This document shows positions 1,312 to 20,700 of a DNA stretch of 24,497 nt, piece after piece (position 1 is the stretch's first letter; the number at the start of each line of letters is the position of its first letter). Below the pieces are notes generated by a model. That model saw only the letters and a program-made list of their open reading frames with translations. It did no database searches and was not told the DNA's origin. This stretch comes from a virus (taxonomy: Duplodnaviria; Caudoviricetes). The position numbers and the translations under genes are program-made. The stretch is from the IMG/VR virus record IMGVR_UViG_3300034118_001689, positions 1 through 24,497 of that record; one strand, 5' to 3'.

Positions 1312-1342
1312 TTTAATATTCCTTGTGGTAGTGGGTCTATCT

Positions 1343-2656: not shown

Positions 2657-2710
2657 CAGCTATGCATTCCCTAGTGTCGTATGTTGTTTTTATAGGCTAC
2701 TGTATGTTAT
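2657..2710. promoter_or_regulatory. 54-bp divergent promoter region; candidate -10 TACTGT (2698-2703) 7 nt before the ATG at 2711, possibly a leaderless transcript
   Basis: Sits between head-to-head terL and the portal operon. TANNNT hexamer followed by 7 nt then ATG, with no SD before 2711. The - strand has AGGGAA upstream of the terL start. Confidence 0.45.
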
Positions 2711-2911
2711 ATGCCCAAACTAAGAACTCTGCCTAACAAATTCACCATTTGGCTCAAACCAAAATTAACTAGGCGTACGTTCGCTAATGTGTTCATGGTT
2801 TCATTTATACTATGTACAAGTATTGGAGCAGGTTTAATATTCCCGCCCGCGGGATTGGTGGTTGCCGGAGTGACGTGCGGTCTATTTGGTTTTTTGTTAG
2901 GACTTGAGTAA
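2711..2911 (+). CDS. Small membrane protein immediately upstream of the portal
   Basis: 66 aa with a basic N-terminus and two hydrophobic segments (FANVFMVSFILCTSIGAGLIF, AGLVVAGVTCGLFGFLLGL). Stop codon is 3 nt before the portal ATG. Confidence 0.75.
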   Translation: MPKLRTLPNKFTIWLKPKLTRRTFANVFMVSFILCTSIGAGLIFPPAGLVVAGVTCGLFGFLLGLE

Positions 2912-2914
2912 AAC

Positions 2915-4984
2915 ATGGCTTGGAATTCATCCGAAAATAAATCACTGGACCAACAGCAGAAAAAATCTGCAATTGGTTATGGCGCTCCAGTCACATCAAA
3001 CCCTAGTTACACGGATAAGCCATACAGGGACTCGTGGGATATTGAGCGTGCATACCGAGAGGGTATGCAGAAAATCACTTGGGTGAACAGATGTATCGAT
3101 GCTATTGCAGGCAACCAAGCACGACTTCCAATCATTCTCAGAAAAGATAATTCAAAAGATGGTGAAGTCGTAGTTGGACGTGAGGCGAAGCGTTCATCAC
3201 TGCTTGAGTTACTCAACGTTAAATCCAATATTGGTGAAAACTCGTTTATTTTCCGATACAGACTTTCTGCTCAGTTGTTGCTTGGCACAAGAGGGGCATT
3301 CATTGAAAAAGTTCGCGGAAGAGATGGCGGTGTTATTGGCTTGAATCTCCTCCCCCCACAATCGACTGCCCCAATTCCATGCCCTCGCAAATTTGTTTCT
3401 GGGTACGAAGTGAACATGCCGTATGGCAAGAAAATAATAATGAAGCCAGAGGATGTTGTGTGGATTAGAAGACCGCACCCCCTTGACCCATACCTTTCTC
3501 TCACGCCTCTAGAGGCTTCTGGTGTTGCTATAGAGATTGAAAATTTGGCAAAGCTCTACAACAGAAACTATCTATTAAACGATGGAAGACCTGGTGGACT
3601 TCTTGTTGTTAGAGGCGAAATAGACGAGGACGATAAAGAAGAATTACGCAATAGATTCAGGGGCAATTTGGGCAAAACTGGTCATACAACAGTTATCGCC
3701 GCAGACGAAGGCGTTGACTTTGTTGATACATCAGCGAACCCACGAGATGCTGCATATATTCAAATGCGACAGATTACAAAAGAAGAAATTCTTGCAGCCT
3801 TTGGTGTTCCAGAATCAGTTATTGGAAATGCCTCCGGAAGAACGTTTAGCAACTCGGCAGAAGAAATTAGGGTGTTTTGGGTTGAGACAATGCTGCCTCA
3901 CCTTGAGCCGATAGCGCGAGCACTGGATGAGCTTGACGAGAAATATTACCTAGATTTTGACACAAGCGAAGTTCCAATCCTTTTGCTCTACAAGCAAGAG
4001 CGCGACAGATATTTGAAAGATGAGCTGTCCCAAGGTTTGATTTCTGTCAACGAATACAGACAGGCAAGTGGAAGAAAAGAAGTTGAAGCAGACCTTGCTG
4101 ATTCTCTGCTTATGAATCCAAACCTAATTCCAATTGCTAACACCAAAAAGAAGATGGAAGAGAATGCTGCACAGGTTCCCGGCGGAGCTCCAGGTATGCC
4201 CCCGGTTCCAGGTATGCCTCCAGTTCCTGGAATGCCGCCAGTCGAAGCTCCAGTACCACCACTTGACCCAAATACAATGCAGGGCGCAATGGCCGAAGTT
4301 GCTGCTGGCGGAACTGGGGATATGGCTCAAACAACGTTGCCACCAGAGGTCGCTGGTATGGCTCCTGCTACTGGAGCAGCGCCAATCCCGTCTGGTATGG
4401 CTAGCGAGTCTTCTGGCGGATTCCAGCACAAATCTGCTCAAAGCGATGAATTCGACAAATCTGAGATGGCAATAGAAAGATGGTCTGAAATTCTTTCAAG
4501 AGGTATTGAAAGAGTTGTTGAAAGACAGCAGCGCGTGGTCCTAGAGAAAGCAAGTAGCAGTAAGTCCAAGAAGGCCCTTATGTCGGGAACACTTGACCTT
4601 GATTCAATTTTCTCAATAGACACATGGAACAAGCAATTGGAAGACGACCTACGTCCTGTTATCTCTGCGATAGTCAATGACTCCTACGAGTTCAGAAAAG
4701 AGTCATACTCGCAGAAGGGATTGAAGCCAAGGGCGCTATCTCCAGCAATTGTCAAGAAGCACATTGATTCGCAAATATCCGAGATACTCACCATGAACTC
4801 TGGAATTCGTTCCTCAATGGAAGAAATGATGATGAAATCATTCTCGCATGTGGGAGAAGAACAGCGTTTCTCGGTTTTTAGAGAAGAGCTTGTTGGGATG
4901 TACGCAAATATCCTTGCAAAAGACCAGCTTGAGATATCTGAGTCAGAAGCAAAAAGAGCCTGGACATTCGGACAGGTTGCCTAG
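2915..4984 (+). CDS. HK97-family portal protein with Pro-rich linker and helical C-terminal extension
   Basis: Portal motifs WVNRCIDAIA, LLLGTRGAF, YLSLTPLEA, NDGRPGGLL, EEILAAFGVPESVIG and ISVNEYRQASG. About 290 extra residues follow the core. Confidence 0.93.
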   Translation: MAWNSSENKSLDQQQKKSAIGYGAPVTSNPSYTDKPYRDSWDIERAYREGMQKITWVNRCIDAIAGNQARLPIILRKDNSKDGEVVVGREAKRSSLLELLNVKSNIGENSFIFRYRLSAQLLLGTRGAFIEKVRGRDGGVIGLNLLPPQSTAPIPCPRKFVSGYEVNMPYGKKIIMKPEDVVWIRRPHPLDPYLSLTPLEASGVAIEIENLAKLYNRNYLLNDGRPGGLLVVRGEIDEDDKEELRNRFRGNLGKTGHTTVIAADEGVDFVDTSANPRDAAYIQMRQITKEEILAAFGVPESVIGNASGRTFSNSAEEIRVFWVETMLPHLEPIARALDELDEKYYLDFDTSEVPILLLYKQERDRYLKDELSQGLISVNEYRQASGRKEVEADLADSLLMNPNLIPIANTKKKMEENAAQVPGGAPGMPPVPGMPPVPGMPPVEAPVPPLDPNTMQGAMAEVAAGGTGDMAQTTLPPEVAGMAPATGAAPIPSGMASESSGGFQHKSAQSDEFDKSEMAIERWSEILSRGIERVVERQQRVVLEKASSSKSKKALMSGTLDLDSIFSIDTWNKQLEDDLRPVISAIVNDSYEFRKESYSQKGLKPRALSPAIVKKHIDSQISEILTMNSGIRSSMEEMMMKSFSHVGEEQRFSVFREELVGMYANILAKDQLEISESEAKRAWTFGQVA
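4190..4243 (+). repeat. Three imperfect 18-bp tandem repeats encoding (PGMPPV)3 in the portal linker
   Basis: ccaggtatgcccccggtt / ccaggtatgcctccagtt / cctggaatgccgccagtc. Confidence 0.9.
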
Positions 4985-5092
4985 TTTCACTAAACAATTT
5001 CTGTAAAAGATTTGATTTAGGCAAATACTTGCATTCTGTAGCTGTTTTCTCGTTTATTATCGACTAGCAACCGAGAGAAGTTGGTTTGGAAA

Positions 5093-8000
5093 ATGTCAAA
5101 AGAAACATTCGAGTATAAGACCACATCGGTATCAGGCTCCCAGCAGATTAAGGGTGCTGTAGGCCTGGATGAGATGCAGGGCATTGTCGAGTGTTTCGTT
5201 GCGGGAATTGGTAATAAAGACTCTGTTGGCGACGTTTGCGCCTCGGGGGCATTCACAAAGAGTCTTCTCCGCCGCAAACCGAGAGTTGTTTGGGGCCACA
5301 ACTGGAATGACCCAATCGGCAAAGTGCTTGAAATTTACGAAGTTGGCCCACAGGACCCACGCCTTCCAATGAAGATGAAAATCGCCGGAATTGGCGGTCT
5401 TTTTGCAAAAGTTCAATTCAATCTTCAGTCAGAAAAAGGCAAAGAAGCATTTGCAAACGTGGCCTTCTTTGGAGAAGAACAAGAGTGGTCAATCGGGTAC
5501 AAGACGCTAAGAGCTCAATTCGACCAGAAGTCACAAGCAAACATTCTTTACGAAGTTGAGCTTTATGAAGTAAGCCCTGTTCTGCATGGGGCAAACCAGT
5601 TAACTGGAACAATCTCGGTCAAGGGTGATGACTCATCGTACGGTAATCCTGTCATGGTGATGCCGGAGCAAGATGAGCGCAACGGGTACGAAGAGATGGA
5701 GAAGGAGCTGTCAAGACTTTTTAATGCCAAAGTCTCAGTTCATTCAATAGATGGCGATGAGGTCGTCTTCACCAGACACGAAATGTCCGGAGCGAAAAAG
5801 TACAAGTGTGGATTCATGAGAAATCATGGAAGATACATGTTCGGAACACCTGAGATGATTTCTGTTCCGCAGAATCCTCAGGCAGCTCCAATGCCAGTTG
5901 TTAGCGGTAGACCGACTCCACCAAATGAACCACAAAGAATTGTCAGACCACAGCAAATGCCATCCATACCTGTCGCTGTTAAGCCAGGCGACAATGGAGT
6001 TGTGATGATTCCACTCCCTTCAGTCCAATATGACGCTTCGCCAAAAATGAGCCTCGACAAAGAAGAAGCAGACCTGCGTGATGCTCTTCTTAAAATCGTT
6101 GCACGCCACGGAAAATTTAACGAGGATTCAAATGGAGTTTGGGCTGGCTACTACCCTCCTGCTGAAAATCCAGTTGCCAGAATTGGTGTCAAGTGCGCTA
6201 ATTGCGTGTTTTATAAAGGCGGGTCAAACTGCAAGATAATTGACATGCCTGTAGAACCAGAAGGCAAGTGCAGATTTGCTGTCATCCCGAATGGCGTTGT
6301 ATTGAGCAGTGGCTCAAAAGAACTTGAGGAACACGCTTCAGAAGCAGAAGATGCAATCATGGAAACGCTTGAGCTCAAGTATCCAGGGGAGTTTGTTCTC
6401 GGTGTGCTACGAAATGCCGTCGGCAAACGAAAGAAGAGAAGAAAGAAGTACAAGAATCTCGCCGAATTTGGCGACGAGGACGATATGGGCGAGAAGTCCT
6501 ACCTCATTCCTGTCGAAACAGATTTTGCATTTAGTGTAAAGACCGCACTAGACCCAGTATTCGATTACTACAGAGCAGAAACATTTGTTGACAAAGAGGG
6601 AATAGTAATAACCTCTGGAGTTACTGAAGATTTGATAGATGCAGTCGATACGGCTCTCTACAACTTAAAAAAAAAATTTCCAAATCATGAAATAGAGGGT
6701 AAATCCCTCGGCTACAGAATTGGCCGTTCGCTTGCATCAAGAGCAATTGATAGACCAAGCATTGGTGGCAAAAGGCGTGGTGGCCGTGGATTCGGCATGC
6801 CAGAGGGCGACCTGGACCCACGAACAAGAGTAGACAAAAACAGAGACGGAACACTCTTTGACAACATTCCTGGTTGGGAACAACCAGACCCAACACCAGA
6901 TGGTCCTGGCTCGATAAACAACCCAAAACTTTCTTCCGCACAAAGAAGAGACGTTGCCAGTATTCCTGGTGAAGGTGAAAAAACAAAACCAGCAGATGGT
7001 GAAATAATAAAGAGCCGTAAACCAAAGTACACGGCCGACGACCTTGGTGAAATTCTTGGAGAAAAGAAGAAGCCCGCGAAGAAGGCTGTAGCCAAAAAGG
7101 CTCCTGTTAAAAAAGAAAAAGTAAAACGAGGAGAACTAGATTTCGCTAAGGGTCCTAAAAAGGATAAGACGCCTTCACTTTCATCTGGTGAAAGCGACAA
7201 GAGACTCACTCGCCACTCGGGAGACCCAAAATTTGAATCACTTGTTTCTCCAGAAGAACTAGAGAAGCGCAAGAAATTCGAAGAAGTAATTAAAGACTGG
7301 AAAGATTCCGGTTATGGCTGGACAGATGTACCTAGGTATAAGCCAGATGCTTACAGGTCGCCTGACTATCTGCGCGGAAGAGAGATGGGTGTCAATCAAG
7401 CCAGGGTGATGTGGCTTGGAGATAAAACCAATCCAAGACCAGCCAAATTCGAAGATAAAAATACGTCTTCTGTTGCCTACAGGGATTGGTACTCAGGGAT
7501 GGTTATGCGTGCCGGCACCTTCCTTGATGCATCACGTGGTGATGACAACGAATTCTACAACGGCATGGAAGATGCAATACATGAATTCATGTACAACAAC
7601 AGACCTGATGCAACTGGGTTCAGGGGTATTGGCCCAGATGGGAAAGACGGTCTATCCGACTGGATGCGTCAATATGGTTTCGACTCATTATCGCCAACTC
7701 CATTAAGAAAGAAAAAAGAAGGAAAAAAGAGAAGTTCACTCTCCCTCTCTTCTGGCGCAGACGACGATACAAGACCAAATTTCGACGAAGAAAATTATGA
7801 GAGCGACACGAATGTAGATTTCTACGACACCATTCTTGACATGATGGGTCCAGAAGATGACCGACCAAAGGTTTCTTCTCGCAAGAAACAAATGAGCGAT
7901 GAAGAGATTTATCGCAAGAGAACGACAACTGGAGCTTCCCTGCAGGATGTTGCAGAAGAGCTCGGTCTGACGAGAATGGAAGTCAGAAAGCGCGAGCAGC

Positions 8001-11000
8001 GTCACATGCGCAAAATGCGTAAAGACAAAGAGGGCGTTTCGCTCTCTTCTGGTGCAAAGAACGAGTGGGCCACTTCGCGTGGGTATGAGCCTGACAGATT
8101 TGACCTTCGTGAGGCAACAAACCAAATAGGTCGCGGAAACATCATGGCCATCTCTGGCGGTCGTGTTGAGCGCAGAGGAAACGAGATGGTTCTTCCTTCA
8201 ACAAAGGACCAGCAAGTCGTTATCGGTTATAACTCCGTCCCAGACCTCTACTACGTCAGAGCTGAACAAAAAATCAATACAGGTAAAGACAAGGGCAAAA
8301 ACAGAATTCTTGCTCAGTGGGATGAAGTTTATGCTGACGAACTTGGCGAACTTGCATATCAAGCAAGTCTCAAGCCAGCAAATCTGAATAACGAGAACAA
8401 AGAGTACTGGAAGCTTGGTAAGGGAAATCAATTCGCTGACAGAATTGTTGACAGGAGAAACGGAAAACTTGTAGATAGAGATTCAGAGAACCTCCCATCT
8501 GCACCATCGAAAGACGAAACTCCTTCGCTGTCTTCTGGTGGACGGGGTCGTGATTATTACAACTACGACATTGAAACAAGCGACGATGGCAATAATCTTC
8601 TTGACCAAATCCACGATGCGTTAGAGGAAAATCCACTTATCAAGGATGACATCACTGCCGATATGGCGGACATGCTTGGTGGAGACGGGATAGTTGAAGC
8701 CAATGGTTTTGACACGCAAAAGGCTTTTAATCTTGTAACTGGAAGCGATGATGAGTTCCAGGACTACATGGACATCGTTGACGATGCAATGGACGCACTG
8801 GAAAACGGCTCTCTTGCAAAACACAAAGCAACAGTGCGTGATGCGAACGTAAGACTCGATTCAGCAAAGCCTGGAAGTAATGAAGCAGGGAAGCTTGAAG
8901 CACTTCGCGACAGGTCGTATGAGTGGATTGGTGACATCAACAAGTATTCACGTGTTTCTACAATTAAAGACAAGAAGAATATTGAAGCCAGTGACGTAGC
9001 AACACGAATGATTTCCAAGGAGCAAGACGCACTCTGGAACGCTCGTTCTGCAATAACAGAAAAATACATAGAAGATATCGCTTCTGCTAGAAAAGAATCT
9101 AAGCGTCGTGTTCCTATTGAGAAGATTGATTCTGATAGAAATACGGTTCCTGATTACGATTTGGCACTTTCTTCTGGAAGCGTCATGAAAGATGCTCCAT
9201 TATCGAAAACTCTTGCTTCAAAGAAGGACGGAATTACCTTATCTTCTGGTGAGTTGCAAGCTACCTACAATGAAATTGGGAAATCAATACTAGAAGCATT
9301 AATCGAGATGGACAAAAATCCAAATCAAACATATTGGGATGTGCCGTGGAGAACGCCAACTCTGTACGCAAGAAATCCAACTAGAAAAAATCGAATATAC
9401 CAGGGCATGAATCAAATACTCCTTGCCCATACCCATAGGAAGAATAATTACCGTGGAAACTTCTGGGCTGGAGAGTCACAATGGGCGAAATTTGGAGGGA
9501 AACCAAAAAAGGGAGAAGAACCTGTATCGATTCTCGTCCCAATAGAGGGAACAATTCCAAGGAAATACAAACTAGAAAAGGTATTGAACCTTGACCAAAT
9601 GGAAGGCCTTCCAGAAGCATACGTAACGAAACTTCTAGATGTTGGCAAAGAACGTCTTGACCCTGCGCTAAAAGTCAAGGACGCTGAGTCCGTCATAGAT
9701 GAACTAAAGCCAGTTATTAAATTTGGTGGAGATGAGGCATTCTTTTCTCCGAGCGGAGATTACATTCAGATGCCGCCTTATGAAATGTTCAAATCACCAG
9801 AGCAGTATTACGGAACGCTTTTTCATGAAGCAACTCACTGGACCGGAGGCTCTGCACGCATTAATAGGCAGACCATAAAAGACTATGCGAAAAACAAAAA
9901 GATTCGCGCAGCAGAAGAATTGATTGCAGAAATGGGCTCCTCATTTCTTCTTGCCGCTATTGGCATATCCCCGCAGGTTAGAACAGACCATGTTGTCTAT
10001 ATAAAAGGTTGGATTTCAAACCTTAAAGAAGACCCAGGTGCATTTATTAAGGCCCTACAACAGGCACAGTCGGCAGCTGACTACATTCTTGATAGGTCGC
10101 CAACATTGAGAAGACTTTCTGGCGTGCCGGAAGAACAACGCAAGGCAAAGCCACCGAAAACCATAATTAAGCCTGCTAAAGAAATAGCCGAAGAGGGTGT
10201 GTCTCTGTCTTCTGGCAGACTCCCAGAGCCTTGGCAGTTGCGCGATGATGTGCGATATTTCGGAGATGAATCTCAATATGGTTCTGGAGTAATTTCCAGA
10301 GACTCTAAGGGTCGGGTCCGCGATGCAGCAGGTGGTCTCTCGCTTTCAAGCGGAGCAAGCCGAGTAAAAAATCTTAAGACTGGAGAAGAAGTTCCAGCAT
10401 TGCTTGAAGACGATGAATCTTATGCTGAAAAGTTTCTCGGAGAAAAAGATTTTGAGCCAACTCAGCAGCAAAAAGCTGCAATCGATACGGCAATGCACAT
10501 GGTTGACAAGAAAAAGGGCAGCCTTGTCATAGGTGCCGGAGCCGGTTCTGGAAAAACTTCGACAATGAAGCAAATTGCAAAAGTGTTGAATAAAATTATT
10601 CCGGATGGAAAAATCTACTACACGGTATTCAACGCCGGAAACGCAAAAGACGGCAATAAAACAATGCCTAGGAATACTGGAGTTGCAACAACTAATCGAA
10701 TTGCCTATTGGTCACTCCTACTCGGTGGTGATACCGGAATATATGGTCAGGGAACAACAAAAAAGATGCAGTTAAGTGCAACAAAGAAATTTTCAAAAAG
10801 ACTTCCAGGCTCGCAAGCGGACAAGGTTATTAATGCAACTATGTTCGATGGTTCAGAGAAGCAATTCATTGGCAGAGAACCGGGATGGTCTGACCTCGGA
10901 TATATAGCGCCAGACTCAATAGAAGGTGTACAAAACATCTTGCTCCAACTCGATGCAGAAAAGAAACTTCCGTCAACAGTTTCAATCGATGACGAAAGCT

Positions 11001-14000
11001 CCAAACAACTGCATCGTGCATTAAAACATTATGCAATTACCGATATGGACTCTCCAACCGCTTTTCATTTTGGTCCGACAGTGTCAGAGTATGCTGCCGC
11101 CCTTTTGGCTGACCCTAATTTTGAGTTCGATGAGTCGGCGGTTGACAAGGACATGGTTGAAACTTTAAACCTAATTTGGGGAAAATTAATAGACCCTAAA
11201 TCAAATGTCGTACCAACACGGGATTTCCAAATAAAAATGTGGGCCCTCACGAAACCAGACCTTAGAACAGACCCTGGTCTTATCGGACACAGACCAGAAG
11301 TGGACAAGGTTGAGAGGGTGAGCGTAGGAACTGACCTCGATATTGATAGTGGAAAACTTGCAATTGGGAAAACGGTAACTGGAATCGTGGATAAGCAGGA
11401 AGTAACTGGCGTAATCCTGTCTTTGCAAAAATCAACAAGACGTTCTGCCGATGGTACATATAAAGTAACTGCAAAATTATCTGTCTCCAACTCAGATAAC
11501 GACAGACCATTCGACATATTCATGTTTGACGAGGCTCAAGACATGAACGACGTAATGGCAAAAGTCCTTACGGATAATGCTTTAAATATGCCAATAATTA
11601 TGGTCGGAGATTCCAGGCAGGCAATCTACGCCTTCCGAGGCTCTATCGATGGTCTGTCAAAACAAGATGCAACATACAGAATTCCATTGACGCAGTCTTT
11701 TAGGTATGGCTCAAACATACAACACCTTGCAAATATTGTCCTTATGAGAGAAAACCTTTCGGATGTCGAATGGCACGATTTGATGGTGGCCCAGGGAGTT
11801 GAGCCAGGATTTACTCCGGTCTATCATCATGTTAAGGGTTCTGCTCAGGATGTTGTTCGTGAGACGCTCAAAATAACAGACGACAATGGCAAGAGACTTC
11901 CTAAAAAAGAACTAAATAAAAAATTGTCATTTATAGAAAAAACTCTCACCTTGGACAATTCTGCTGTAAGTTTCAGCGGGCTGTCATCCACAGAAGTAGA
12001 CGAACTCTTAGATGAACTGAGGGCCGAACATGTTAACTCTGCCATGGGTGAAATCGTCGAAAACATGACTAATCCGGATGCAATCATCAACTCCACAAAT
12101 AGGGGTGTTTATGAAGAGGCGATGGGCGTTATCAGAAGAGGTATAGAGAGTCACCAGATGGCATACCTTGAGCTGGTAGTACAGCTAGACGGTGCATCAA
12201 AACAAAATCTTCCACGCATATATAGAGAGATTTCTGAAAGATATAGGCTGAATGGGAAAAGCGTAAATCTTTTAGACGAGAATCTTACTGATGATGAAAG
12301 AAATACAATCATCGAAGAATTAATTGAAGAACATGCTCCTGGCGGAGAAGATGGAATGGTCCCAGCAATAGGAATCCCGGCAGATACTCATAAGAAAATG
12401 ATGGATTTCTACACCCAGCTTGACTGGATAGAGAATAATAAAGACACTTTTGGCAAAGATGGAAGGCCCCCGGTTTCGGATAAACTCCAGGGCATCTGGG
12501 ATAAAGTTGGTGGTGTTGACCCAAGCCCTGAAGAGATAAGAAGACGGCTGCAAAGAAAAGTTCAAGACGACGCGGAAACGGGAACGCTCTACAGACTCGC
12601 TCATCCGACAAAAGTTGACCCAGCGCAACATATTGGCGCCAGGGGAATGTTGGCATACCTCAAACCGGACGGACAAAGTTATACGACTAACGGCGGTGAA
12701 GTTAAGAGGTATCAAGCATTAAAACCAATTAGGGAAGGTCTCAGCATTCCAGCAATGGAAGTTACTGGAGATAACGTCACCGTTGAAAAATTATTGGCTC
12801 ATGCCAAGCTTCCGCCTAAGTCAGTTAGTCGCGGCAGACAATCAAAAATGGGACACATAATACAACCGCAAAGCGAATCGATACAACAAGGAGAGGTATT
12901 CCTAAAGCTCCAGTTGGACGATGACGATAATTGGACCGGAGCCGTTATGGTCGGTGGGGTTGGCGCGCATGGTGGAAAATATGAATATAGGTCGTGGATG
13001 AATGGAATACTTCCAGGAGGTGGGAGAGGTGGTCCAGTTGGGTGGGGAACCATTCGAACCGCAACTAACACGCAAAATGTTCAGCCAAATTATCACGGTG
13101 ATATTGAAAAAGCAGTAAAAAAACTAAAGAAAAAATACCCGAACGCAACAATTTCATTTGAGATGGAGCAACAACAGGCCGATGGAAAGTCTGCTCAATT
13201 CCCAGTTAATACTGACGTAGATGCACCAGTGACCTTGGATGGCAAAGGTAATCCAAACCTTGATACGCCTCGAATCAAATTCCCAGCTTGGATAGTAAAG
13301 GGAAGAGATGACGAGGAAACGGCACAAATAGTCAATGCGCTTGGTGACATGGTGAGAGAGTCTGCAAAAGGCGGAGACACCGATGTCGACGTAATGACGA
13401 CCCACATATCAAAAGGAAGGGAATATGCAAACGTCCAGGCTGGAGAAGACTTTTCAGACCCAGACACCATGGTCCCAATATTAAGTGAAGAACAAAGAGA
13501 AAAAATATCAAAACTCCCTAATGGCTTGAAGATAATTAGAGCGCTTGAGATAAACAGAAGGCAAGAAGAAAATAAAGTCTACATTTTGCTAACACGTGCA
13601 ATGAGAAGACTTGACCCAGGCAGAGCAATATCTAAATACTATTTTAGTGACACAAAAGAAGATGGGACTCCTAACACAAGAACCATAAATTCAAAGGCGG
13701 CAATAAAAAATGACGTTATTGTCGACGGCAAAAAAATATACGAAGACTTGCAGATACCTGAAGGATTTAGGGCTCCATATGAGACAAGTCCAGAGCAAGC
13801 CGAAATTGACGAAAGAGAAAGAGCAGCAGTAGAAAAAAAACTTGACGACTCAATGGTCGCATTTACTAAAAAGATGAAAGAACGTCTCGATGCCGAAGAA
13901 GCAGAAGCAAAAAGAAAAGCTGAAGAAAGAAAGAAATCAGGGAAGAAAGACGGTCCGATTGCGGAAGATGAAGAAGAAGAAGAAGACTCCGATGAGCCAG

Positions 14001-15961
14001 ACTTCAGTGATTCAGGAGTTGACCCAAATATAAGCTCCCTTGCTTTTGACTCGAGCGGTGGTCCAATTCTTTCCCTCAGCTCTGGCGCTAAAAAGAAAAC
14101 TAATAGAGCAAATAGACGCTTGCCATTCAACGAGCAAGATAGACAGAATATTGCAGATAGAAATATCCTGCGCTCAAAGAAGGTCCCAAAGAAGAAAAAG
14201 CCAGCCCCATCAGCAGATGAATTCGATGACCTAGCTCTTGCTTCTGGAGCCAATACCCCAGAGGGTAGATATGCGCGAAGACTGAGGGCAATTAGCCTTT
14301 CAAGCGGTAGCGATGACATCGGTGCTGGAGCGAGAAATCAGCGAGTTAGTGGCAAAAAATTTGCCAGCAATATAGCCGGACCTCGCGACCTAGCAGCAAT
14401 ACGGATTGATGGCGACCCAAGAAGAAACGATAAAGCAAAACGCAAACTTGATTATGCGATGAAGTTTTGGCGTGGGGTTAGAGAGCGCGGAATTGCACTC
14501 GACCCACAAGATACAACAGCTGAACGCAAAGCCATCGATATAAAGAATGCTATTAATTCAGTATCCAAAGGAATGGCTGCAAGACCAAAAGTTAAAATTG
14601 GAAAAGTTTCATCAAATCAAGTAAAAGATGAAGTAAATCCAGATGAATGGTTTGTCCCTGTTTCGAAACTTAGAGATGCAGTAAGAATTCCAACAGAGTT
14701 TTCTAGCTACCCAGTTGACCCTGATAACCCAAATAGCAGAATGATTGCGCGCTGGACACAGACACGCCCACTTAACAATGATGAGCTTGGGAAGATGTTG
14801 GCGTTGAGTAAGTCAGACATAGCAAAACTGTCTGATGACGATGCAGGAATAACTCACGACGCAGTTCGTTTCTTGCTTTCAGAAATCGGAAAGCAGGATG
14901 GATTTGATGCCTGGAGGCTTTTCGCCCCAACATCAGAAAAAGAAGAAGGAGTCAGCGAAATGACCCCATCTGAGAAGTTCGTCGAAAACCTTGGCAGAGC
15001 CAATATGCGCGACAGATTCATCATCGAGACATTTGGCAAGGATGCATTCCCTTACTGGGTTGACAAGGAAGAGAATGCTGTAATAAGTCAAAAGGAATAT
15101 GCGTCACTTGGTGAAGTAAGTGAAACTGGAAAATTCAGGTCTACTGGAATATTCAGTAAGAAGCGCGGCGAGTCAGAATTTGCCTCAACGGCAGAAGAAA
15201 TGCTCCTTGAAGAGGCAGTTTTTGGTGGCGACGATGGTCCTGGCGATTTTGTCAAGCAGACGATAGTCAACGCTGCTTCGGCTCCATCAGACAAGACTTC
15301 AAGAGAACAGTTTGATATTGGTCAGCTCCTTGATTCCCTTGGTATCGAAGAAGGCGGCAACTGGCACGATGAGCTGCGTAAGCGACTTATTGAGGCCTTT
15401 GGGACAGATGATGTTGGCCTATCTTCAAGGGAAATAGCTAGACAGTGGGAAACTGGCGGTGTTCCGACCACCTACATCAATGAAATGATTAGAACTGGTG
15501 TCATCCCAGATGCTAAGTCAGTGTGGAAAAAGGATGAGGCTGGGAAAAAGCTTGATGCAGAATTGGCCGCATCAAAGCACTCCGTCTACGAGGCCCTCTA
15601 CGAGTTCACCCAGGCAAAGCATTCCGCCGACAAAGCCAAAAACACCAGACGGAATAGGGACTATATTCTCGGGTCAACTGACTTCACCGTTTCACACAAG
15701 GGTGTGGCAGCAAGAAAGGGAGCCACATTCTCAAAGAAGACTGGAGACGAAAGAAGATTCAGTCAGAGCGAGCTTCAAGATGTTGTAAATCGTTTTAATG
15801 AAATATTTGGAACGAACTACAAGATTGACGATATCTTCAGTGCCGAGCAGCTTCGCAACGCAACAAAGCGTCTTCGCGAAGACGGGAAAACCCTTTATGG
15901 AGAAGATGGACCAGAGCTAGGCAAGAGGGTCGTTATGAAGAAAGATAGTAATAAAAAATAG
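5093..15961 (+). CDS. Giant polyvalent protein: HK97-type prohead protease fused to HiPIP-like, HTH, ArdC and UvrD-like helicase domains plus unknown modules (about 3622 aa)
   Basis: Single open frame. The ORF track starts at TTG 5081; ATG 5093 is the more likely start. Domain motifs are given in the sub-features below. Eleven LSSG and one LASG motifs lie at module boundaries. Confidence 0.9.
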   Translation: MSKETFEYKTTSVSGSQQIKGAVGLDEMQGIVECFVAGIGNKDSVGDVCASGAFTKSLLRRKPRVVWGHNWNDPIGKVLEIYEVGPQDPRLPMKMKIAGIGGLFAKVQFNLQSEKGKEAFANVAFFGEEQEWSIGYKTLRAQFDQKSQANILYEVELYEVSPVLHGANQLTGTISVKGDDSSYGNPVMVMPEQDERNGYEEMEKELSRLFNAKVSVHSIDGDEVVFTRHEMSGAKKYKCGFMRNHGRYMFGTPEMISVPQNPQAAPMPVVSGRPTPPNEPQRIVRPQQMPSIPVAVKPGDNGVVMIPLPSVQYDASPKMSLDKEEADLRDALLKIVARHGKFNEDSNGVWAGYYPPAENPVARIGVKCANCVFYKGGSNCKIIDMPVEPEGKCRFAVIPNGVVLSSGSKELEEHASEAEDAIMETLELKYPGEFVLGVLRNAVGKRKKRRKKYKNLAEFGDEDDMGEKSYLIPVETDFAFSVKTALDPVFDYYRAETFVDKEGIVITSGVTEDLIDAVDTALYNLKKKFPNHEIEGKSLGYRIGRSLASRAIDRPSIGGKRRGGRGFGMPEGDLDPRTRVDKNRDGTLFDNIPGWEQPDPTPDGPGSINNPKLSSAQRRDVASIPGEGEKTKPADGEIIKSRKPKYTADDLGEILGEKKKPAKKAVAKKAPVKKEKVKRGELDFAKGPKKDKTPSLSSGESDKRLTRHSGDPKFESLVSPEELEKRKKFEEVIKDWKDSGYGWTDVPRYKPDAYRSPDYLRGREMGVNQARVMWLGDKTNPRPAKFEDKNTSSVAYRDWYSGMVMRAGTFLDASRGDDNEFYNGMEDAIHEFMYNNRPDATGFRGIGPDGKDGLSDWMRQYGFDSLSPTPLRKKKEGKKRSSLSLSSGADDDTRPNFDEENYESDTNVDFYDTILDMMGPEDDRPKVSSRKKQMSDEEIYRKRTTTGASLQDVAEELGLTRMEVRKREQRHMRKMRKDKEGVSLSSGAKNEWATSRGYEPDRFDLREATNQIGRGNIMAISGGRVERRGNEMVLPSTKDQQVVIGYNSVPDLYYVRAEQKINTGKDKGKNRILAQWDEVYADELGELAYQASLKPANLNNENKEYWKLGKGNQFADRIVDRRNGKLVDRDSENLPSAPSKDETPSLSSGGRGRDYYNYDIETSDDGNNLLDQIHDALEENPLIKDDITADMADMLGGDGIVEANGFDTQKAFNLVTGSDDEFQDYMDIVDDAMDALENGSLAKHKATVRDANVRLDSAKPGSNEAGKLEALRDRSYEWIGDINKYSRVSTIKDKKNIEASDVATRMISKEQDALWNARSAITEKYIEDIASARKESKRRVPIEKIDSDRNTVPDYDLALSSGSVMKDAPLSKTLASKKDGITLSSGELQATYNEIGKSILEALIEMDKNPNQTYWDVPWRTPTLYARNPTRKNRIYQGMNQILLAHTHRKNNYRGNFWAGESQWAKFGGKPKKGEEPVSILVPIEGTIPRKYKLEKVLNLDQMEGLPEAYVTKLLDVGKERLDPALKVKDAESVIDELKPVIKFGGDEAFFSPSGDYIQMPPYEMFKSPEQYYGTLFHEATHWTGGSARINRQTIKDYAKNKKIRAAEELIAEMGSSFLLAAIGISPQVRTDHVVYIKGWISNLKEDPGAFIKALQQAQSAADYILDRSPTLRRLSGVPEEQRKAKPPKTIIKPAKEIAEEGVSLSSGRLPEPWQLRDDVRYFGDESQYGSGVISRDSKGRVRDAAGGLSLSSGASRVKNLKTGEEVPALLEDDESYAEKFLGEKDFEPTQQQKAAIDTAMHMVDKKKGSLVIGAGAGSGKTSTMKQIAKVLNKIIPDGKIYYTVFNAGNAKDGNKTMPRNTGVATTNRIAYWSLLLGGDTGIYGQGTTKKMQLSATKKFSKRLPGSQADKVINATMFDGSEKQFIGREPGWSDLGYIAPDSIEGVQNILLQLDAEKKLPSTVSIDDESSKQLHRALKHYAITDMDSPTAFHFGPTVSEYAAALLADPNFEFDESAVDKDMVETLNLIWGKLIDPKSNVVPTRDFQIKMWALTKPDLRTDPGLIGHRPEVDKVERVSVGTDLDIDSGKLAIGKTVTGIVDKQEVTGVILSLQKSTRRSADGTYKVTAKLSVSNSDNDRPFDIFMFDEAQDMNDVMAKVLTDNALNMPIIMVGDSRQAIYAFRGSIDGLSKQDATYRIPLTQSFRYGSNIQHLANIVLMRENLSDVEWHDLMVAQGVEPGFTPVYHHVKGSAQDVVRETLKITDDNGKRLPKKELNKKLSFIEKTLTLDNSAVSFSGLSSTEVDELLDELRAEHVNSAMGEIVENMTNPDAIINSTNRGVYEEAMGVIRRGIESHQMAYLELVVQLDGASKQNLPRIYREISERYRLNGKSVNLLDENLTDDERNTIIEELIEEHAPGGEDGMVPAIGIPADTHKKMMDFYTQLDWIENNKDTFGKDGRPPVSDKLQGIWDKVGGVDPSPEEIRRRLQRKVQDDAETGTLYRLAHPTKVDPAQHIGARGMLAYLKPDGQSYTTNGGEVKRYQALKPIREGLSIPAMEVTGDNVTVEKLLAHAKLPPKSVSRGRQSKMGHIIQPQSESIQQGEVFLKLQLDDDDNWTGAVMVGGVGAHGGKYEYRSWMNGILPGGGRGGPVGWGTIRTATNTQNVQPNYHGDIEKAVKKLKKKYPNATISFEMEQQQADGKSAQFPVNTDVDAPVTLDGKGNPNLDTPRIKFPAWIVKGRDDEETAQIVNALGDMVRESAKGGDTDVDVMTTHISKGREYANVQAGEDFSDPDTMVPILSEEQREKISKLPNGLKIIRALEINRRQEENKVYILLTRAMRRLDPGRAISKYYFSDTKEDGTPNTRTINSKAAIKNDVIVDGKKIYEDLQIPEGFRAPYETSPEQAEIDERERAAVEKKLDDSMVAFTKKMKERLDAEEAEAKRKAEERKKSGKKDGPIAEDEEEEEDSDEPDFSDSGVDPNISSLAFDSSGGPILSLSSGAKKKTNRANRRLPFNEQDRQNIADRNILRSKKVPKKKKPAPSADEFDDLALASGANTPEGRYARRLRAISLSSGSDDIGAGARNQRVSGKKFASNIAGPRDLAAIRIDGDPRRNDKAKRKLDYAMKFWRGVRERGIALDPQDTTAERKAIDIKNAINSVSKGMAARPKVKIGKVSSNQVKDEVNPDEWFVPVSKLRDAVRIPTEFSSYPVDPDNPNSRMIARWTQTRPLNNDELGKMLALSKSDIAKLSDDDAGITHDAVRFLLSEIGKQDGFDAWRLFAPTSEKEEGVSEMTPSEKFVENLGRANMRDRFIIETFGKDAFPYWVDKEENAVISQKEYASLGEVSETGKFRSTGIFSKKRGESEFASTAEEMLLEEAVFGGDDGPGDFVKQTIVNAASAPSDKTSREQFDIGQLLDSLGIEEGGNWHDELRKRLIEAFGTDDVGLSSREIARQWETGGVPTTYINEMIRTGVIPDAKSVWKKDEAGKKLDAELAASKHSVYEALYEFTQAKHSADKAKNTRRNRDYILGSTDFTVSHKGVAARKGATFSKKTGDERRFSQSELQDVVNRFNEIFGTNYKIDDIFSAEQLRNATKRLREDGKTLYGEDGPELGKRVVMKKDSNKK
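5180..5620 (+). other. Prohead (maturation) serine protease domain, HK97/Peptidase S78 type
   Basis: GNKDSVGD...GAFTKSL, VVWGHNWNDPIGK (His at 5297), EWSIGY (Ser at 5489) and LYEVSPVLHGAN. Directly downstream of the portal. Confidence 0.92.
6140..6290 (+). other. HiPIP-like four-cysteine metal or Fe-S binding domain
   Basis: WAGY...KCANCVFYKGGSNCKIIDMPVEPEGKCRF, giving C-x2-C-x8-C-x12-C (Cys codons at 6194, 6203, 6230, 6269), with G-x-C at the last Cys as in HiPIPs. Confidence 0.55.
7895..8020 (+). other. Sigma-70 region 4-like helix-turn-helix domain
   Basis: SDEEIYRKRTTTGASLQDVAEELGLTRMEVRKREQRHMRKMR matches the region-4 pattern (T/S)L-x-E(I/V)A/G-xx-L-G-(L/V)-T-R-E-R-V-R-Q-x-E-x-(R/K)-A-L-x-K-L-R. 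Confidence 0.75.
9251..10100 (+). other. ardC: ArdC-like antirestriction module (ssDNA-binding N-domain plus zincin-like metallopeptidase)
   Basis: WDVPW, YQGMNQILL, QWAKFGGKPKKGE, AFFSPSGDYIQMP, YYGTLFHEATHWTG (HExxH at 9824-9838), EELIAEMGS, YIKGWISNLKEDP and AQSAADYIL. Confidence 0.9.
10450..13610 (+). other. Superfamily 1 UvrD/Rep-like helicase with large insertions
   Basis: Q motif PTQQQ, Walker A GAGAGSGKTS (10532), motif Ia TVFN, Walker B FDEAQD (11528), III VGDSRQAIYAFRG, IV LTQSFRYG, V TTHISKGRE (about 13400) and VI YILLTRA (about 13590). Confidence 0.9.
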
Positions 15962-16012: not shown

Positions 16013-16092
16013 TTGCAGGGGCTCGTGGTAGGTTATAATTTAGACCATTAACAAATGGTAGATGTCCCTAGGGATATTTGCCTGCAAATCTC
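16013..16092 (+). promoter_or_regulatory. Candidate promoter (TATAAT at 16034-16039) followed by three adjacent inverted repeats
   Basis: Perfect -10 hexamer in the intergenic gap; TTGCAG at 16013 is only 15 nt upstream, so the -35 is uncertain. Inverted repeats: ACCATT-N4-AATGGT (16044-16059), ATGTCCCTAGGGATAT (16062-16077) and ATTTGC-CT-GCAAAT (16076-16089). Confidence 0.5.
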
Positions 16093-16101
16093 AGGAGTCA
16101 T

Positions 16102-17751
16102 ATGAGCTACGACGAAAAGGCCAATGTAAGCATCGATGCTGATGGAAACGTGCTGAAGTGTGCCAAGGGTGCCGCCCCCACTGAATGTGGATTTGTCAAG
16201 GGTGCGGAGCTGTGTGCAAAGTGCGGAGCAACGCCATTGCAGATGAAAATGGTACCAGTCGAAGAGATGGTTGAAGAAGACATGGTCGACGCAGAGGTCG
16301 GAATGTCAAAGAAAAAGAAGAAGAAAATGATTTCTCTCCCAGATGCCGAGGGCATGGAAGAAGAAGAGGACGAAGAGGACGAGGAAGAAATTCCGGAAGA
16401 CGCCATCGGTGTAACCAAGCCAGATTTGAAGAAGCCAAGCGAAAAAGGAATGAATGCACAAGTTGGTGCAATCATGGAAGAAGAGTACGGCGACGAAGAA
16501 GACGACGAAGAAGAAGATGAAGAGGACGAAGAAGAAATGTCCTCCATGAAGATGTACGAAGAAGATGACATGTCAGAAGAGGAGCTGGAAAAAGCTTTGA
16601 ACTACATGAGAAATCGACGCATGACAAAAGCATCCATGGACGAAGATGGCGAGATGCTCGAAGAAGAAGTGGACATGGAAGAAGACGACATGTCCGAAGA
16701 TGAAGTAATGAAGGCTTTGACTTGGGCCCTCAAAAAGAAGCGCACAATGGCGGAAAAAGGATTGGATTCAGATGAGGAATTCAGTGATGACTTGGATGAA
16801 AAAATCCTATTTGATGCCTCCGACGAGGATTGGAATACGCTTAGAGAAGAAAGAATTAGCTCTCTTGGAATCAAGTCGGAAGAAATTGGTGTAGACGGTT
16901 TTGTCTGCGCACTTGACAGAAAAGCTCATCCAGCAGGAATGTCAGTATGCGACGACTGCCCAGGTGGATGCGTTGCAGAAAAGGGCCTACCTGGATTACT
17001 CCACGTTGAGGGTCTTGCAGAAAAAGCATTTGATGGATTTGTTGTTGACTCTGGCTACTCGTCAGATGCAGACATGTTTGTCATTGATGTTCAGACCAAA
17101 GACGGTGCAGTTAAGGAAGTTTTCATTGACGGAACAACTGCCGAGATTATGGGATTCCATAAGCTCGAGTCAGAAGAGTTTGAACAAAAGTCAGACTATA
17201 CAAACGTAAAACTCATTGATTTCACTGAAGCAGCTGAGATTGCAGTCAAGTCAATCGACGGGCTAGTCGTCGCAGTTGAGCCAGACGTTTTCGAAGGTTT
17301 TGATTCATACGCAGTTGAAATTGAAGGTGTTGACGGAAAGTCGTACGACGTGTTCGTTGCTCTGGATGGCGAGATTCTTGGATACGACAAGTACGAGCCA
17401 GAAGAAGCAGAAGAAATCGAAGCAGAAGCTGCCGAAATCGCACTGAAGAGAGCATTCAGCGATGAGCAGAGAGATTCAATGGCAAAAGAAGGCTCTGCGA
17501 TGTCAGATGGTTCTTATCCAATTGCTTCAGAAAACGATTTGCGCAATGCGATACAAGCATTTGGTAGAGCAAAGGATAAAGAAAAGACAAAGCGTCACAT
17601 AATGAAGAGAGCACGTGAGCTAAAGTTGGAGAGTCTTATCCCTGCAAATTGGCTCGCAGGAAGCAAGGAAAAGAGTGACGAGGTTGTAAATGATGCAGAT
17701 TTCATGGCGGCCCTTGTTGAATTCCAGCTCCTCGAAGACAATATCGACTAA
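16102..17751 (+). CDS. Acidic head-associated protein with two Cys4 clusters, tandem PepSY-like domains and a C-terminal helical domain
   Basis: ATG 16102 is preceded by AGGAG (the ORF track starts at TTG 16078). Contains CAKG...ECG...CAKCG, long D/E tracts, CALDRK...VCDDCPGGC, two PepSY-like repeats (about 16990-17160 and 17215-17390) and C-terminal GSYPIASENDLRNAIQAFGRA...IPANW. Confidence 0.8.
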   Translation: MSYDEKANVSIDADGNVLKCAKGAAPTECGFVKGAELCAKCGATPLQMKMVPVEEMVEEDMVDAEVGMSKKKKKKMISLPDAEGMEEEEDEEDEEEIPEDAIGVTKPDLKKPSEKGMNAQVGAIMEEEYGDEEDDEEEDEEDEEEMSSMKMYEEDDMSEEELEKALNYMRNRRMTKASMDEDGEMLEEEVDMEEDDMSEDEVMKALTWALKKKRTMAEKGLDSDEEFSDDLDEKILFDASDEDWNTLREERISSLGIKSEEIGVDGFVCALDRKAHPAGMSVCDDCPGGCVAEKGLPGLLHVEGLAEKAFDGFVVDSGYSSDADMFVIDVQTKDGAVKEVFIDGTTAEIMGFHKLESEEFEQKSDYTNVKLIDFTEAAEIAVKSIDGLVVAVEPDVFEGFDSYAVEIEGVDGKSYDVFVALDGEILGYDKYEPEEAEEIEAEAAEIALKRAFSDEQRDSMAKEGSAMSDGSYPIASENDLRNAIQAFGRAKDKEKTKRHIMKRARELKLESLIPANWLAGSKEKSDEVVNDADFMAALVEFQLLEDNID

Positions 17752-17771: not shown

Positions 17772-20700
17772 ATGACGGGTGATACAAATAAGACGCGAGT
17801 AATCGTTTCTCAACGATTGATATCGCCTTTATCGTGCTGCAATAATTTCAACTCCAAAGCGATTGAGTTCCGCGCGTCGGTAACCAAGTCTTTATCAATG
17901 TCGCGCCTTGATGCGGACATTGCCGTCAAGGCAGCAATGGGGGCTAAGCCGACATATCAGGACACCGACAACAAGAAGCGGGAATTTACTGGAACAACAA
18001 AACCTGGGGTAGAAGAAATCGCACCAGGGATGAGAGTGGAGACCAATAAGGCTTGGGAAGAAGGAAGAAGTCTAGTTCTTTATCCAAGTTGGAAATCAAA
18101 GCGTTCAATGAATCTTGATGCCAACTTTGGATGGATTGAGGGTAAGCAAGATACCGATTTTGAGACAGCTCAGAAAAAAAGAAAAGAAAAACCACAGCTT
18201 CAATTTACAAAATATGATGTGAACCCAAAGACTGGTGATGTCATTCCTGGTTCAGAAACACAAATTGATATGGCCTACCCACGGCTCGGTTTGTCTAGGG
18301 CGCAAAGACGCAAACAGAACAAAAACGTTAATAATCCGCAAATGCAATTCAAAGCAGGGTTACCTGGACGCTCTCTTGAATCACGTATACCGGGTGGGAA
18401 TCTTCTTGCTAGGGCAGCCGGGAGATTTGGCATAGCAAGAGACGCAAACAATAAGTTTAGGTGTCCACCAGGAACTCCTGCTGCAAACCAATTTACCGAC
18501 CATCTTGGTTCTAATTGTTTTGGCGTAAGTATGGAGAGGGCGGCAAAATTTCTTGCTGACAAAATAAATCAATTAATGACTTTCGACAGTCAACAATTAG
18601 CCCTGTCTTCCGGTGCAAAAGAAACATGGAGAGAAAGATTGCGCATGAGACGCGGCGGCGCAATGCCTGGAAGAAGTCCATCATACGATATGGAAACTGG
18701 GGAGAGAATACCAACAACCCCAGCAGAAATAGTAGATGTTCCAGGGAGAATGAGATGGTTTAAAAATGCAACAGTAAACGCACAAAGGAACCTTGCTCGC
18801 TCTGAGTCTCTCGTTCAGAGACTTGAATCAAGAACAGGAGTTCGTGATTTCACCCCAAAAGATAGAGAAATTAATAATGATAGATACGAGTTGCTATCTC
18901 GATTAAAAAATATGGGTATTTGGGACATAGATATAAAAGGAAGACTTTCAGAGGAGCAGGTCGATGAATTCATTCAGTCACGACTTGAATTAATACCAGA
19001 ATGGGATTCTTTAACTCCAGAAGAAAAAATAGCACTATTCACGGCAGACAAAAAAAGATATTACGAGACAGAGCGGGCAATGCTTGATTCACTGCTTGAG
19101 CAGTTCGTAATTAGACCAGAACATATGAGGACTGTCGGAAAAGTTGAATTCTTTCAAGACCCAATAGATGATGATAACTCAGAAGCGACAACAACGTGGG
19201 ACGTGAAATCGGAAGGCGCAGGAATAAAGTCGGTCATAAAAGTAAATATTGAGCAAATTATGACCAACCAAGAAGGTGAAGACGGGATACCTGGCATGTC
19301 ACCACGTGAGAGATTAGTTATTTCTGCTATTGGTGGAAGGACTGACGCAGAAGCAATGGCTAAAGTCGCTGACTTCCTGATTAATACAGAATACACGGCA
19401 AGAGGAATGGCTGGTCTTATTGATGGGCCGCGTTCTTTCGCTCGTCATATTATGTTGCATGAAATTGCACATACAATTCAGGGAGAAGCATTTTTAAAAT
19501 CAATTAAACAACAGATAGATGCACATGGTTATGTTGATGTTCCAGTTTATGATTATAAAAAGGGTAGATTTACTGGTGAGATAAAGCAGGTTTCTGATAT
19601 CAGAAAACTAACCGGAGGCGACCTTTCGGTGCTCGTTGTTGGTTCTCAAGACGACATAAACTTAACATCCCTCGAAGATGCAATGTCAAAAATAGAGAAT
19701 GTCGCATTTCTTGCTGGAAGCTACCCTAATGTTTCAAGAAGCGATGGCAGGATGGAAGTTTATGCACTTGAATCCACAGCTGAACTTTGGGGTCTCAGGG
19801 AAGAGGGTTTAATATTTGGGGACGATATAGATGATGCTCTGAGCTTCATGGACGATGCTGTCGGCGCAAAAGCAGCTGAAGCCAGAGCCATAACAGACCT
19901 AGAAATGCTCGAGAGGCTCGAGGAGTCGTACTTCTCTCCACTTGAAAGAGGTGAAGACGTACTGCCAATACGAAAGCATCTTCGCGCTCCAATTGAATTA
20001 GATAAAAAAGCAATTGCAGCAAAAAGAGAAGAACGTGTACTAGGTGAGTTTAAAAAGAGCATCAAGGACCTGAACCAAGAGCAGCTTGCTATAACTCTTG
20101 CCGATGTAATTGAGTTTGTAGATATGGCTGAGAGTAAGAGGAAAGAGCTTTATAGAAGTTTATCCAAAATTGAAGACTCACCGTACGATGCGGCCGAGGG
20201 TGCTTATGACGACTTGCTTGAACAGGTTGAGAAACTAGAAGAATTAATAACACTTAATAAGAAAGCACAAAAGATTGCTATTGACAAAAACACATCTTTC
20301 AATACTGATGGTAAAAAAGCATCAGACAAAGAGATATTGGATATGGCCAGGGAGATTATAAAAGGTAGAGACCCTGTTACCCCAGAAGAGGCAGCTAGAA
20401 GACTGAGCGCTGAAAGGACAGACGCGCTAAGAGCTGAAGCCGGTGCGCTTAGCGATGAGTTATTAGTTAAAAAAATAGCTGATTATGACCTTTTAGCTTC
20501 ATCTCTTAAGCCGGATAGCGATGACTACATACGTAATAGTGCTGATAGAGAAATATTCGTTCAACAGTACATAGCTAATAAACGTGCATCTGGTGACACA
20601 AGAACCCCTAGTGTTATAAAAAATGAACTAAGAGCGAGCATAACTAAAGAAATAACCGCATCTCGAGATGCCGTTGACGGTGCAAAACGCGGCAAACTTA

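Follow-up and report, generated by a model that had tools for sequence, protein, structure and literature searches.

Why should a phage build its head maturation protease as the N-terminal part of a chain of 3,622 amino acids (aa), and what becomes of the rest of that chain? The question is raised by an open reading frame (ORF) at 5093..15961 on the plus strand of the virus record IMGVR_UViG_3300034118_001689 (Caudoviricetes), the complete 24,497 bases of which are referred to here as the window. One open frame encodes this protease-led polyprotein of about 403 kDa, counted from an ATG at 5093; the same frame is also open from a TTG at 5081, which would give 3,626 aa. Pfam matches over cut-off place Peptidase_S78 at residues 31-173, Sigma70_r4 at 945-977, ArdcN at 1391-1481, MPTase-PolyVal at 1530-1654 and UvrD-helicase/AAA_19 at 1807-2184. 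The original prediction for this DNA was an intact S78 domain, with WGH and WSIGY motifs, heading the chain and followed by cargo that includes ArdC and a full superfamily 1 (SF1) helicase. It is confirmed by these matches (PF04586 for the protease), by the presence of His69 and Ser133 and by the location of helicase motifs I-VI, although its headline cargo list missed the zincin metallopeptidase (MPTase), which is also part of the cargo. Packaging in the head and co-delivery appear to be the likeliest purpose of the fusion.

A protease-led fusion throughout a phage clade

The fusion is real and clade-wide, and its cargo is variable. One contig (L005) reproduces window positions 4824-15653 at 99.96% and another (L001) positions 1-12385 at 99.97%; both may stem from the same water body or lake as the window. 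In the contigs of all four runs that carry no possible-source flag, each of the 30 bins is covered and no indel is listed; no one piece covers the whole stretch in these runs, and one piece per run crosses the A run discussed below gaplessly. A relative of the fused protein is encoded in 578 of the 598 matched stretches of IMG/VR. Out of 153 parsed loci, a set that holds repeats of some contigs, 62 reach the stop codon: 53 encode at least 2,000 aa, five belong to a clade of 1,064-1,224 aa, in three the frame is broken and one results from a parsing error. A protein search returned 261 clusters (1,992-6,339 aa) with a common N-terminal S78 protease, and all counts out of 120 homologues given here refer to the 120 listed of these clusters. 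Homologues with the same N-terminus and different cargo, to which the original prediction had looked, are thus abundant: ArdC-MPTase is present in 103/120 and the helicase in 92/120, and the order of modules changes.

An assembly chimera, or chance read-through of adjoining genes, could be suspected from the broken frame in three loci (L007, L040 and L041) and from a protease-cargo junction that resembles an old gene boundary. However, this explanation is already contradicted by the near-identical contigs, by the 53 of 62 loci of at least 2,000 aa and by the 261 clusters, and we give it a negligible probability; the earlier concern about a chimeric assembly is settled by L005, L001 and the four runs. 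Promoter and terminator scans gave chance-level results only, and no RNA dataset was listed among the runs holding window DNA. One subclade (L158, L179, L187, L189, L190 and the related genome G012) has a protease fusion of 1,064-1,224 aa without ArdC or helicase. Two helicases, pentapeptide repeats or KTSC domains were found in some fusions (L033, L043, P0015, P0011).

The protease domain (5183..5623, plus strand) is of the HK97 type with an assemblin fold and matches PF04586 at E 5.8e-10 (40 bits versus a cut-off of 21). Its catalytic positions are His69 in WGH (nucleotide, nt, 5297), Ser133 in WSIGY (nt 5489) and Glu159 (nt 5567). The motifs around His, Ser and Glu are retained by 120/120 long homologues, partly by construction, since these homologues were found via the protease region. 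The equivalog model TIGR01543 scores the domain at 45.8, below its cut-off of 59. A low-confidence AlphaFold model of residues 15-625 best matched T4 gp21 (Z 7.9, root-mean-square deviation 3.7, 121 aligned), with the varicella-zoster virus protease at Z 6.1 and herpes proteases next; the Foldseek E was only 0.08. Six records of 136-170 kb (G001-G004, G011 and G012, the last 91% complete) served as related genomes. In 6/6 the S78 ORF is single and sits between the portal and other head genes, and in G001 an HK97-type capsid (PF05065) lies about 15 kb downstream; the fused ORF is the phage's only detected maturation protease. The His/Ser domain, the place after the portal and an HK97-type capsid with a Lys/Ser delta-domain boundary (cut sites are marked by a slash) are shared with the HK97-family prohead proteases (S78, TIGR01543). 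The nearest cultured ones (35-37% identity), Gordonia phage ChisanaKitsune gp30 with 501 aa and Brevibacterium phage Cantare gp13 with 417 aa, are both cargo-free, in contrast to the 3,622-aa fusion, and do not agree with the earlier statement that HK97-type proteases normally have 200-250 aa.

LSSG junctions and the modules between them

Twelve L[SA]SG junction peptides, 11 LSSG and one LASG, lie on the plus strand within 6302..14308, at nt 6302, 7178, 7745, 8042, 8528, 9167, 9239, 10205, 10343, 14075, 14237 and 14297. The first (nt 6302) is not conserved in most homologues. By chance 0.1 LSSG would be expected in the fused protein. Elsewhere in the window L[SA]SG occurs four times in a second giant protein and in neither the portal nor a 557-aa ORF. 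In the 120 homologues [LMF][SA]SG was counted 1,366 times versus 45 expected, with 3 to 21 copies per protein and at least three in 120/120. The copies avoid the enzymes: there are 0 inside the aligned ArdC-MPTase core versus 108 expected (n=103) and 1 inside the helicase versus 188 expected (89 of 92 used), while the C-terminal module holds 22 versus 109 expected and the module starting at aa 699 holds 11 versus 45. The ArdC start lies a median of 2 residues from a motif, and one relative (L008) is without exactly one motif-to-motif segment. By its placement, LSSG bounds modules that get lost or moved. Since all six Leu codons and both Ser codon classes are in use in the motif, selection acts on the peptide, and a DNA-level repeat was ruled out as its origin.

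The motif is not confined to the fused protein. Over five genomes the giant proteins hold 100 copies versus 4.8 expected and all other ORFs 32 versus 24.7, while ORFs in the position of the tape measure hold 13 versus 2.1, a number that 0/2,000 local shuffles reached. In G012 a GL[ARS]S variant, a pattern chosen from this genome's own giants, is found in both giants and in the ORF at the tape-measure position (4 versus 0.3-0.4 expected). The GLASS/GLRS-variant subclade that includes G012 has five large motif-bearing proteins and offers a natural control. The original prediction was right in taking LSSG as a segment marker; its sharing with other giants and with the tape-measure-position protein had gone unseen, as had the A run.

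The modules, all on the plus strand, differ widely in their spread. The first (aa 699-884; 7187..7744) has no assigned family, occurs in 70/120 homologues, is the one absent motif-to-motif from L008 and gave 28 matches only among 1.84 billion representatives. It is followed by a module with a helix-turn-helix of the sigma-70 region-4 type (7754..8041; Pfam E 8.1e-6; 59/120) and by two modules with no assigned family (8051..9166), aa 987-1145 and the acidic aa 1149-1358, each in 7/120. The C-terminal helical module (14306..15958; 551 aa; 79/120) has no assigned function and an AlphaFold mean predicted local distance difference test of 78; shorter matches to it look like fragments or internal starts, and no fold match was obtained at E<=0.001 or Z>=5. 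XRE repeats suspected there by eye were dropped, as Pfam gave no support. For the modules without a family nothing was found in the ESM Atlas, PDB sequence profiles or the Foldseek PDB and viral sets; VIA-align gave a best Z of 4.9, with scattered XRE-type rows at Z 3-4, and a search for a stand-alone homologue of aa 987-1125 found none. These blank fold and sequence searches do not establish a new fold.

The ArdC-like unit (9248..10204) is complete, with ArdC-N and a zincin MPTase (HEATH at nt 9824, Glu at nt 9917). It aligns with R388 ArdC (6SNA) over nearly the whole length at E 1.1e-36, so that the whole two-domain unit with HExxH and Glu is kept, here set within a phage structural gene with LSSG peptides on either side. 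By analogy with R388 ArdC, for which both activities have been shown, binding of single-stranded DNA (ssDNA) and antirestriction are predicted. The adjoining hypervariable helicase (10352..14074), an SF1 enzyme of the UvrD family with large insertions and an acidic tail, has motifs I at aa1816, II at 2146, III at 2172, IV at 2199, V at 2770 and VI at 2826, located by script, and motif Ia (YTVFN), read off the translation. F-box DNA helicase 1 (FBH1) is its only PDB match at E<=0.01 (E 6.6e-9), and all NCBIfam helicase equivalogs score far below cut-off. The enzyme thus appears FBH1-like, with predicted unwinding activity.

A second allele of the ArdC-helicase block exists inside near-identical flanks. 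In the modules ahead of the block and directly behind it, the contig L004 has 96-100% identity to the window, as against 82% in ArdC-MPTase and 56% in the helicase; the right border lies at the LSSG of nt 14075 and the left one is gradual. In run X20 the depth drops from about 90 to 4-9 over about 9170-14250. This turnover would suit a helicase that belongs to an exchangeable cassette for conflict better than one with housekeeping duties. The X20 depth also falls in the second giant gene, at about 17800-18500 of the window and in L004, which suggests allele exchange there.

Proposed loading, cutting and delivery of the cargo

Several features bear on how the cargo could be loaded and released. 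An invariant Lys177 (ISVK/) closes the protease domain in the alignment and is a predicted self-cleavage site of S78, while EIK/SIG, common to capsid proteins (5/5 listed), is a candidate S78 cut site. The pattern [EQ]xK[SAG] occurs 62 times versus 27 expected in small head-region ORFs (2.3-fold) and 134 times versus 183 expected elsewhere. The HK97 capsid is cut after Lys, a point for which our literature search gave nothing usable in confirmation. Between protease and cargo lies a four-cysteine domain (CxxC...C...C with HiPIP-like spacing; 6065..6301, plus strand) with four conserved Cys (Pfam HIPIP E 0.15, under cut-off). It is fused to the protease in most relatives, is a stand-alone gene of 132-133 aa in G011 (88394-88792) and G012 (62092-62493), and is possibly a metal-binding head accessory.

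The cargo opens with the leader ExK537/SLGYRIGR...DRP...DxNxDG (6695..6952, plus strand), the Lys of which (EGK537) is invariant in the alignment. The leader matches a third giant protein of G001 (phmmer E 1.6e-25), and ExK/[SA][LI]GxR...DRP opens this protease-free giant, about 25 residues in, in 4/4 genomes G001-G004. The segment is predicted to be an S78 cut site followed by a head-targeting sequence, comparable to the propeptides of T4 and SPN3US (PMC5694885). With the same leader on a giant that has no protease, it is probably not the fusion that enables cargo loading, and the part after K537 looks like a formerly separate gene with its own head-targeting leader. The protease had been proposed as the cargo's direct route into the head; the fusion holds, but the protease is probably not the sole anchor of a cargo with its own leader, and may still set the amount loaded.

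Shortly before the leader lies the longest A run of the window, A10 (6667..6676, plus strand; site 6667..6695). Both shifted frames stop within six codons of it (TGA at 6688-6690, TAG at 6693-6695), and slippage could yield cargo-free forms of 532 or 533 aa, similar in size to the nearest cultured phage proteases. The junction KKK is pure-A in 40/40 cases, other KKK in 9/130. Two of the frame-broken loci, L040 and L041, have A9 and terminate there, which may reflect true variation or an error in sequencing. A search for conserved RNA structure at the A run gave z values of -2.2, -1.4, +0.3 and -2.0 in four loci, with differing folds. In tssM, slippage at an A run gives two lengths at 15-25% (PMC4256274); here, as in Yersinia tssM3, it is the shorter product that requires a slip, the longer one being in frame.

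We consider it somewhat probable that the fused protein is loaded into the head as a polyprotein, that its own protease trims it at Lys and a second peptidase cuts it at LSSG, and that its modules are delivered with the DNA. Late expression from the head operon would give the full-length product and, by A10 slippage, a minor cargo-free form of about 532 aa that sets the protease:cargo ratio, a step to which we incline only slightly. With good probability, both the protease region and the ExK/SLGxR leader would serve in co-assembly of the product with the HK97-type capsid. It is just as probable that S78 would cut after Lys (ISVK177/, EGK537/, capsid EIK/S) and release a cargo of about 344 kDa. 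That a second enzyme cuts LSSG seems reasonably likely, and that this enzyme is one of the HExxH zincins of co-targeted giants, cutting before Leu, Phe or Met at or after ejection, a little short of an even chance. The freed ArdC and FBH1-like helicase may then oppose host DNA-targeting defences, with the helicase in arms-race turnover, a role we would put slightly above even.

Three candidates for cutting LSSG occur in every one of the six genomes: S78, an HslV-family peptidase with an N-terminal Thr (in G001 at L082:14154-14774) and the HExxH motifs of other giants (6/6). We favour a zincin because Leu, Phe or Met followed by a fixed prime side is in keeping with the habits of such enzymes, because S78-type substrates bear the Lys motif, and because the tape measure, to our knowledge, does not pass through the prohead. 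The ArdC-linked MPTase was discarded as a required cutter, as 17/120 homologues lack it and G012, without a PF18818 match, keeps the motif variant.

A number of points weigh against this scheme. Packaging, cutting and delivery are all inferred from sequence, and the Lys-site and GL[ARS]S patterns were picked after inspecting the data. The HExxH motifs of the other giants have no Pfam peptidase match and lie at unaligned positions in G012 as compared with the other genomes, the LSSG motif is kept in the 17 homologues lacking the ArdC-linked zincin, and the HslV-family peptidase of all six genomes is a further candidate. The A run is found in just 37/69 distinct loci and is missing from whole subclades, G011 and G012. 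According to the accessible parts of the R388 study, ArdC prefers ssDNA (PDB 6I89/6SNA), works only if expressed in the recipient and does not need its protease activity (PMC7213743), whereas this phage injects double-stranded DNA (dsDNA); the suggestion that ArdC and helicase protect or remodel incoming DNA thus found no direct support. Since tape measures may undergo cleavage while the tail is being assembled (PMC10713586), the presence of one motif in both kinds of protein does not necessarily point to cutting at ejection. In these phages, moreover, the tape measure is named by its position after sheath, tube and chaperone, with no family match, and 2 of its 13 motifs lie in a hydrophobic column and are probably due to chance.

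Herpesvirus assemblin specificity combines Leu at P3 with small P1 and P1' residues. S78 has an assemblin/gp21 fold, and of all the proteases it alone is sure to encounter the cargo. It could itself read LSSG and cut all giants in the prohead, as T4 gp21 and SPN3US gp245 do with their own internal proteins, but we regard this as unlikely, given that the portal and the 557-aa protein are without LSSG, that capsids are not among the motif-bearing ORFs in G001-G004, that Lys sites are enriched in small head ORFs and that the tape-measure-position protein, outside the prohead by general knowledge, bears the motif. It is nevertheless established that prohead proteases recognise short motifs and cleave numerous proteins of the head there (PMC5694885). 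In a quick, unfinished tree with a group table for F versus GLASS only, no S78 column discriminated the Leu/Phe preference; nothing is concluded from this, since one pocket may accept both Leu and Phe.

Alternatively, an HslV-like or host protease may read LSSG in the producer cell or host and free the modules late in the cytoplasm, leaving most cargo unpackaged. The HslV-family gene in 6/6 genomes, the known cutting of tape measures in tail assembly and the activity of R388 ArdC expressed in place would all suit this possibility, yet there would be little benefit in anti-restriction cargo that is produced late and stays behind, and the cargo leader, shared with another giant, follows a head-type Lys site; we consider it quite improbable. 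Marginally less probable still is that LSSG stays uncut, as a tag for binding, translocation or modification or as a recombination-prone linker, and that the giants are threaded through the tail intact. The N4 virion RNA polymerase is, in the accessible passages of Iyer et al. 2017, packaged unprocessed despite its MPTase domain (PMC5512222), and the motif shows an excess of TCT codons (about 50% versus 24% background), which could aid module exchange. However, synonymous codons vary freely, and a strict four-residue sequence that recurs up to 21 times in flexible linkers, right before free-standing enzyme units, usually marks processing sites.

Genomic setting, host and known systems

The fused gene is preceded by the portal (2915..4984, plus strand) and by a divergently oriented terminase large subunit (1343..2656, minus strand), beside which positions 87-1311 encode a Rad52/Erf-like annealing protein and a conserved 163-aa protein. 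Downstream, the acidic 557-aa head-region protein (16078..17751, plus strand) has two Cys clusters and a C-terminal domain that weakly matches (E 4e-4) the C-terminus of a head maturation protease family, phrog_80. It is a candidate scaffold, with the Met at nt 16102 as the likelier-looking start; PepSY, suspected by eye, had no Pfam support and was dropped. The second giant protein (17772..24497, plus strand; open at the contig end) carries a zincin-like HExxH...E module (nt 19458, 19764) and, further along, two DGH motifs of ParB/Srx-like type at nt 22929 and 23538. At about nt 23700-24160 it has a RelA/SpoT-like module, for which a match to the XopAD/skwp model, in its C-terminal part, was also obtained (E 2e-25, well below cut-off). 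An ADP-ribosyltransferase suspected in this giant by eye was likewise abandoned without Pfam support. The third giant of G001-G004 (L114, L117, L119, L121), with DEDDh exonuclease and HExxH modules, lies 30-40 kb away and has 1,210-4,250 aa and 2-12 motifs; the DEDDh module is found in the second giant in G011 and G012 and in the protease fusion P0101.

In G001, scanned with 183 references spanning most of its 196 called ORFs, Pfam and PHROGs revealed two WhiB genes, baseplate J, tail sheath, tube, chaperone and the HK97-type capsid. Primase-helicase, SSB, RNR and Thy1 are present, and no DNA polymerase family was matched among the ORFs scanned. At about 63000-83300 (L084, L085) more than ten 2OG-Fe(II) oxygenases are clustered with a fatty acid desaturase, a cyclopropane synthase-like methyltransferase and a glycosyltransferase. 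WhiB has been used as an actinobacterial host marker (PMC6802176), and 21/21 runs holding window DNA are lake water (13 of them flagged as possible source). Based on WhiB in the relatives, which appear to be actinobacterial myovirus genomes, and on the lake-water runs, the host of the window phage is probably a freshwater actinobacterium.

The closest described systems are the polyvalent proteins of Iyer et al. 2017, with MPTase and ArdC-N hub domains and predicted processing into units (PMC5512222). The fused protein resembles them as a large multidomain chain of the head operon that joins ArdC-N, MPTase and helicase and is predicted to be delivered with DNA and processed. In the accessible passages of that study, assemblin-like peptidases lie "always at the C termini" of polyvalent proteins, so that a maturation protease at the N-terminus is indeed unusual. 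We therefore count the fused protein as a variant, the C-terminal place being a tendency and not a family definition. The recurring junction peptide, the shared leader and the slippage site are absent from the same passages, although the supplementary architectures may hold a closer precedent. ArdC-N, put forward earlier as typical of phage polyvalent proteins, is given there in 93% of conjugative ones and "rarely" in phage ones, and a UvrD-like helicase is reported only in actinomycete conjugative elements (PMC5512222). In T4 (gp21/CTS) and in SPN3US/phiKZ a prohead protease trims propeptides of internal proteins at a short motif, the propeptides are head-targeting and the proteins are ejected (PMC5694885); protease and cargo are separate genes with one Glu motif there, whereas one chain with two motifs, one of them shared with the tape-measure-position protein, is found here. 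Protease-capsid and protease-MuF fusions are described in the accessible part of a study of Microbacterium phages (PMC7302621), and the accessible part of a preprint on phage ArdC (bioRxiv 2025.02.27.640493) does not mention the prohead. A literature search, with most subscription journals outside its reach, found no account of this protease-cargo system or of phage LSSG cleavage. Overall, the observation behind the original prediction was upheld and its interpretation only partly borne out.

Viral polyproteins such as Gag/Gag-Pol combine a structural N-terminus, a recoding site, enzyme cargo and proteolytic release. The layout here is similar, but in a dsDNA phage and by analogy without homology. 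Tentatively, and with less than even confidence, we propose a retrovirus-like polyprotein strategy in a freshwater actinobacterial myovirus clade, in which a slippery A run would control the protease to protease-cargo ratio, the head protease would strip Lys-ended propeptides, a virion-borne second peptidase would read a genome-wide LSSG tag on all ejected proteins (giant head proteins and tape measure), and a swappable anti-defence arsenal would be freed on entry. That polyvalent proteins are split into units is a long-standing prediction made without known cut sites; here candidate sites are readable from sequence, so that the processing prediction becomes directly testable. The motif-bounded modules provide a list of candidate anti-defence proteins, three to four of which are without known family, and the portable leader and tag could serve for loading proteins into HK97-type heads. 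Finally, helicase turnover among near-identical phages points to a conflict role of the FBH1-like enzyme.

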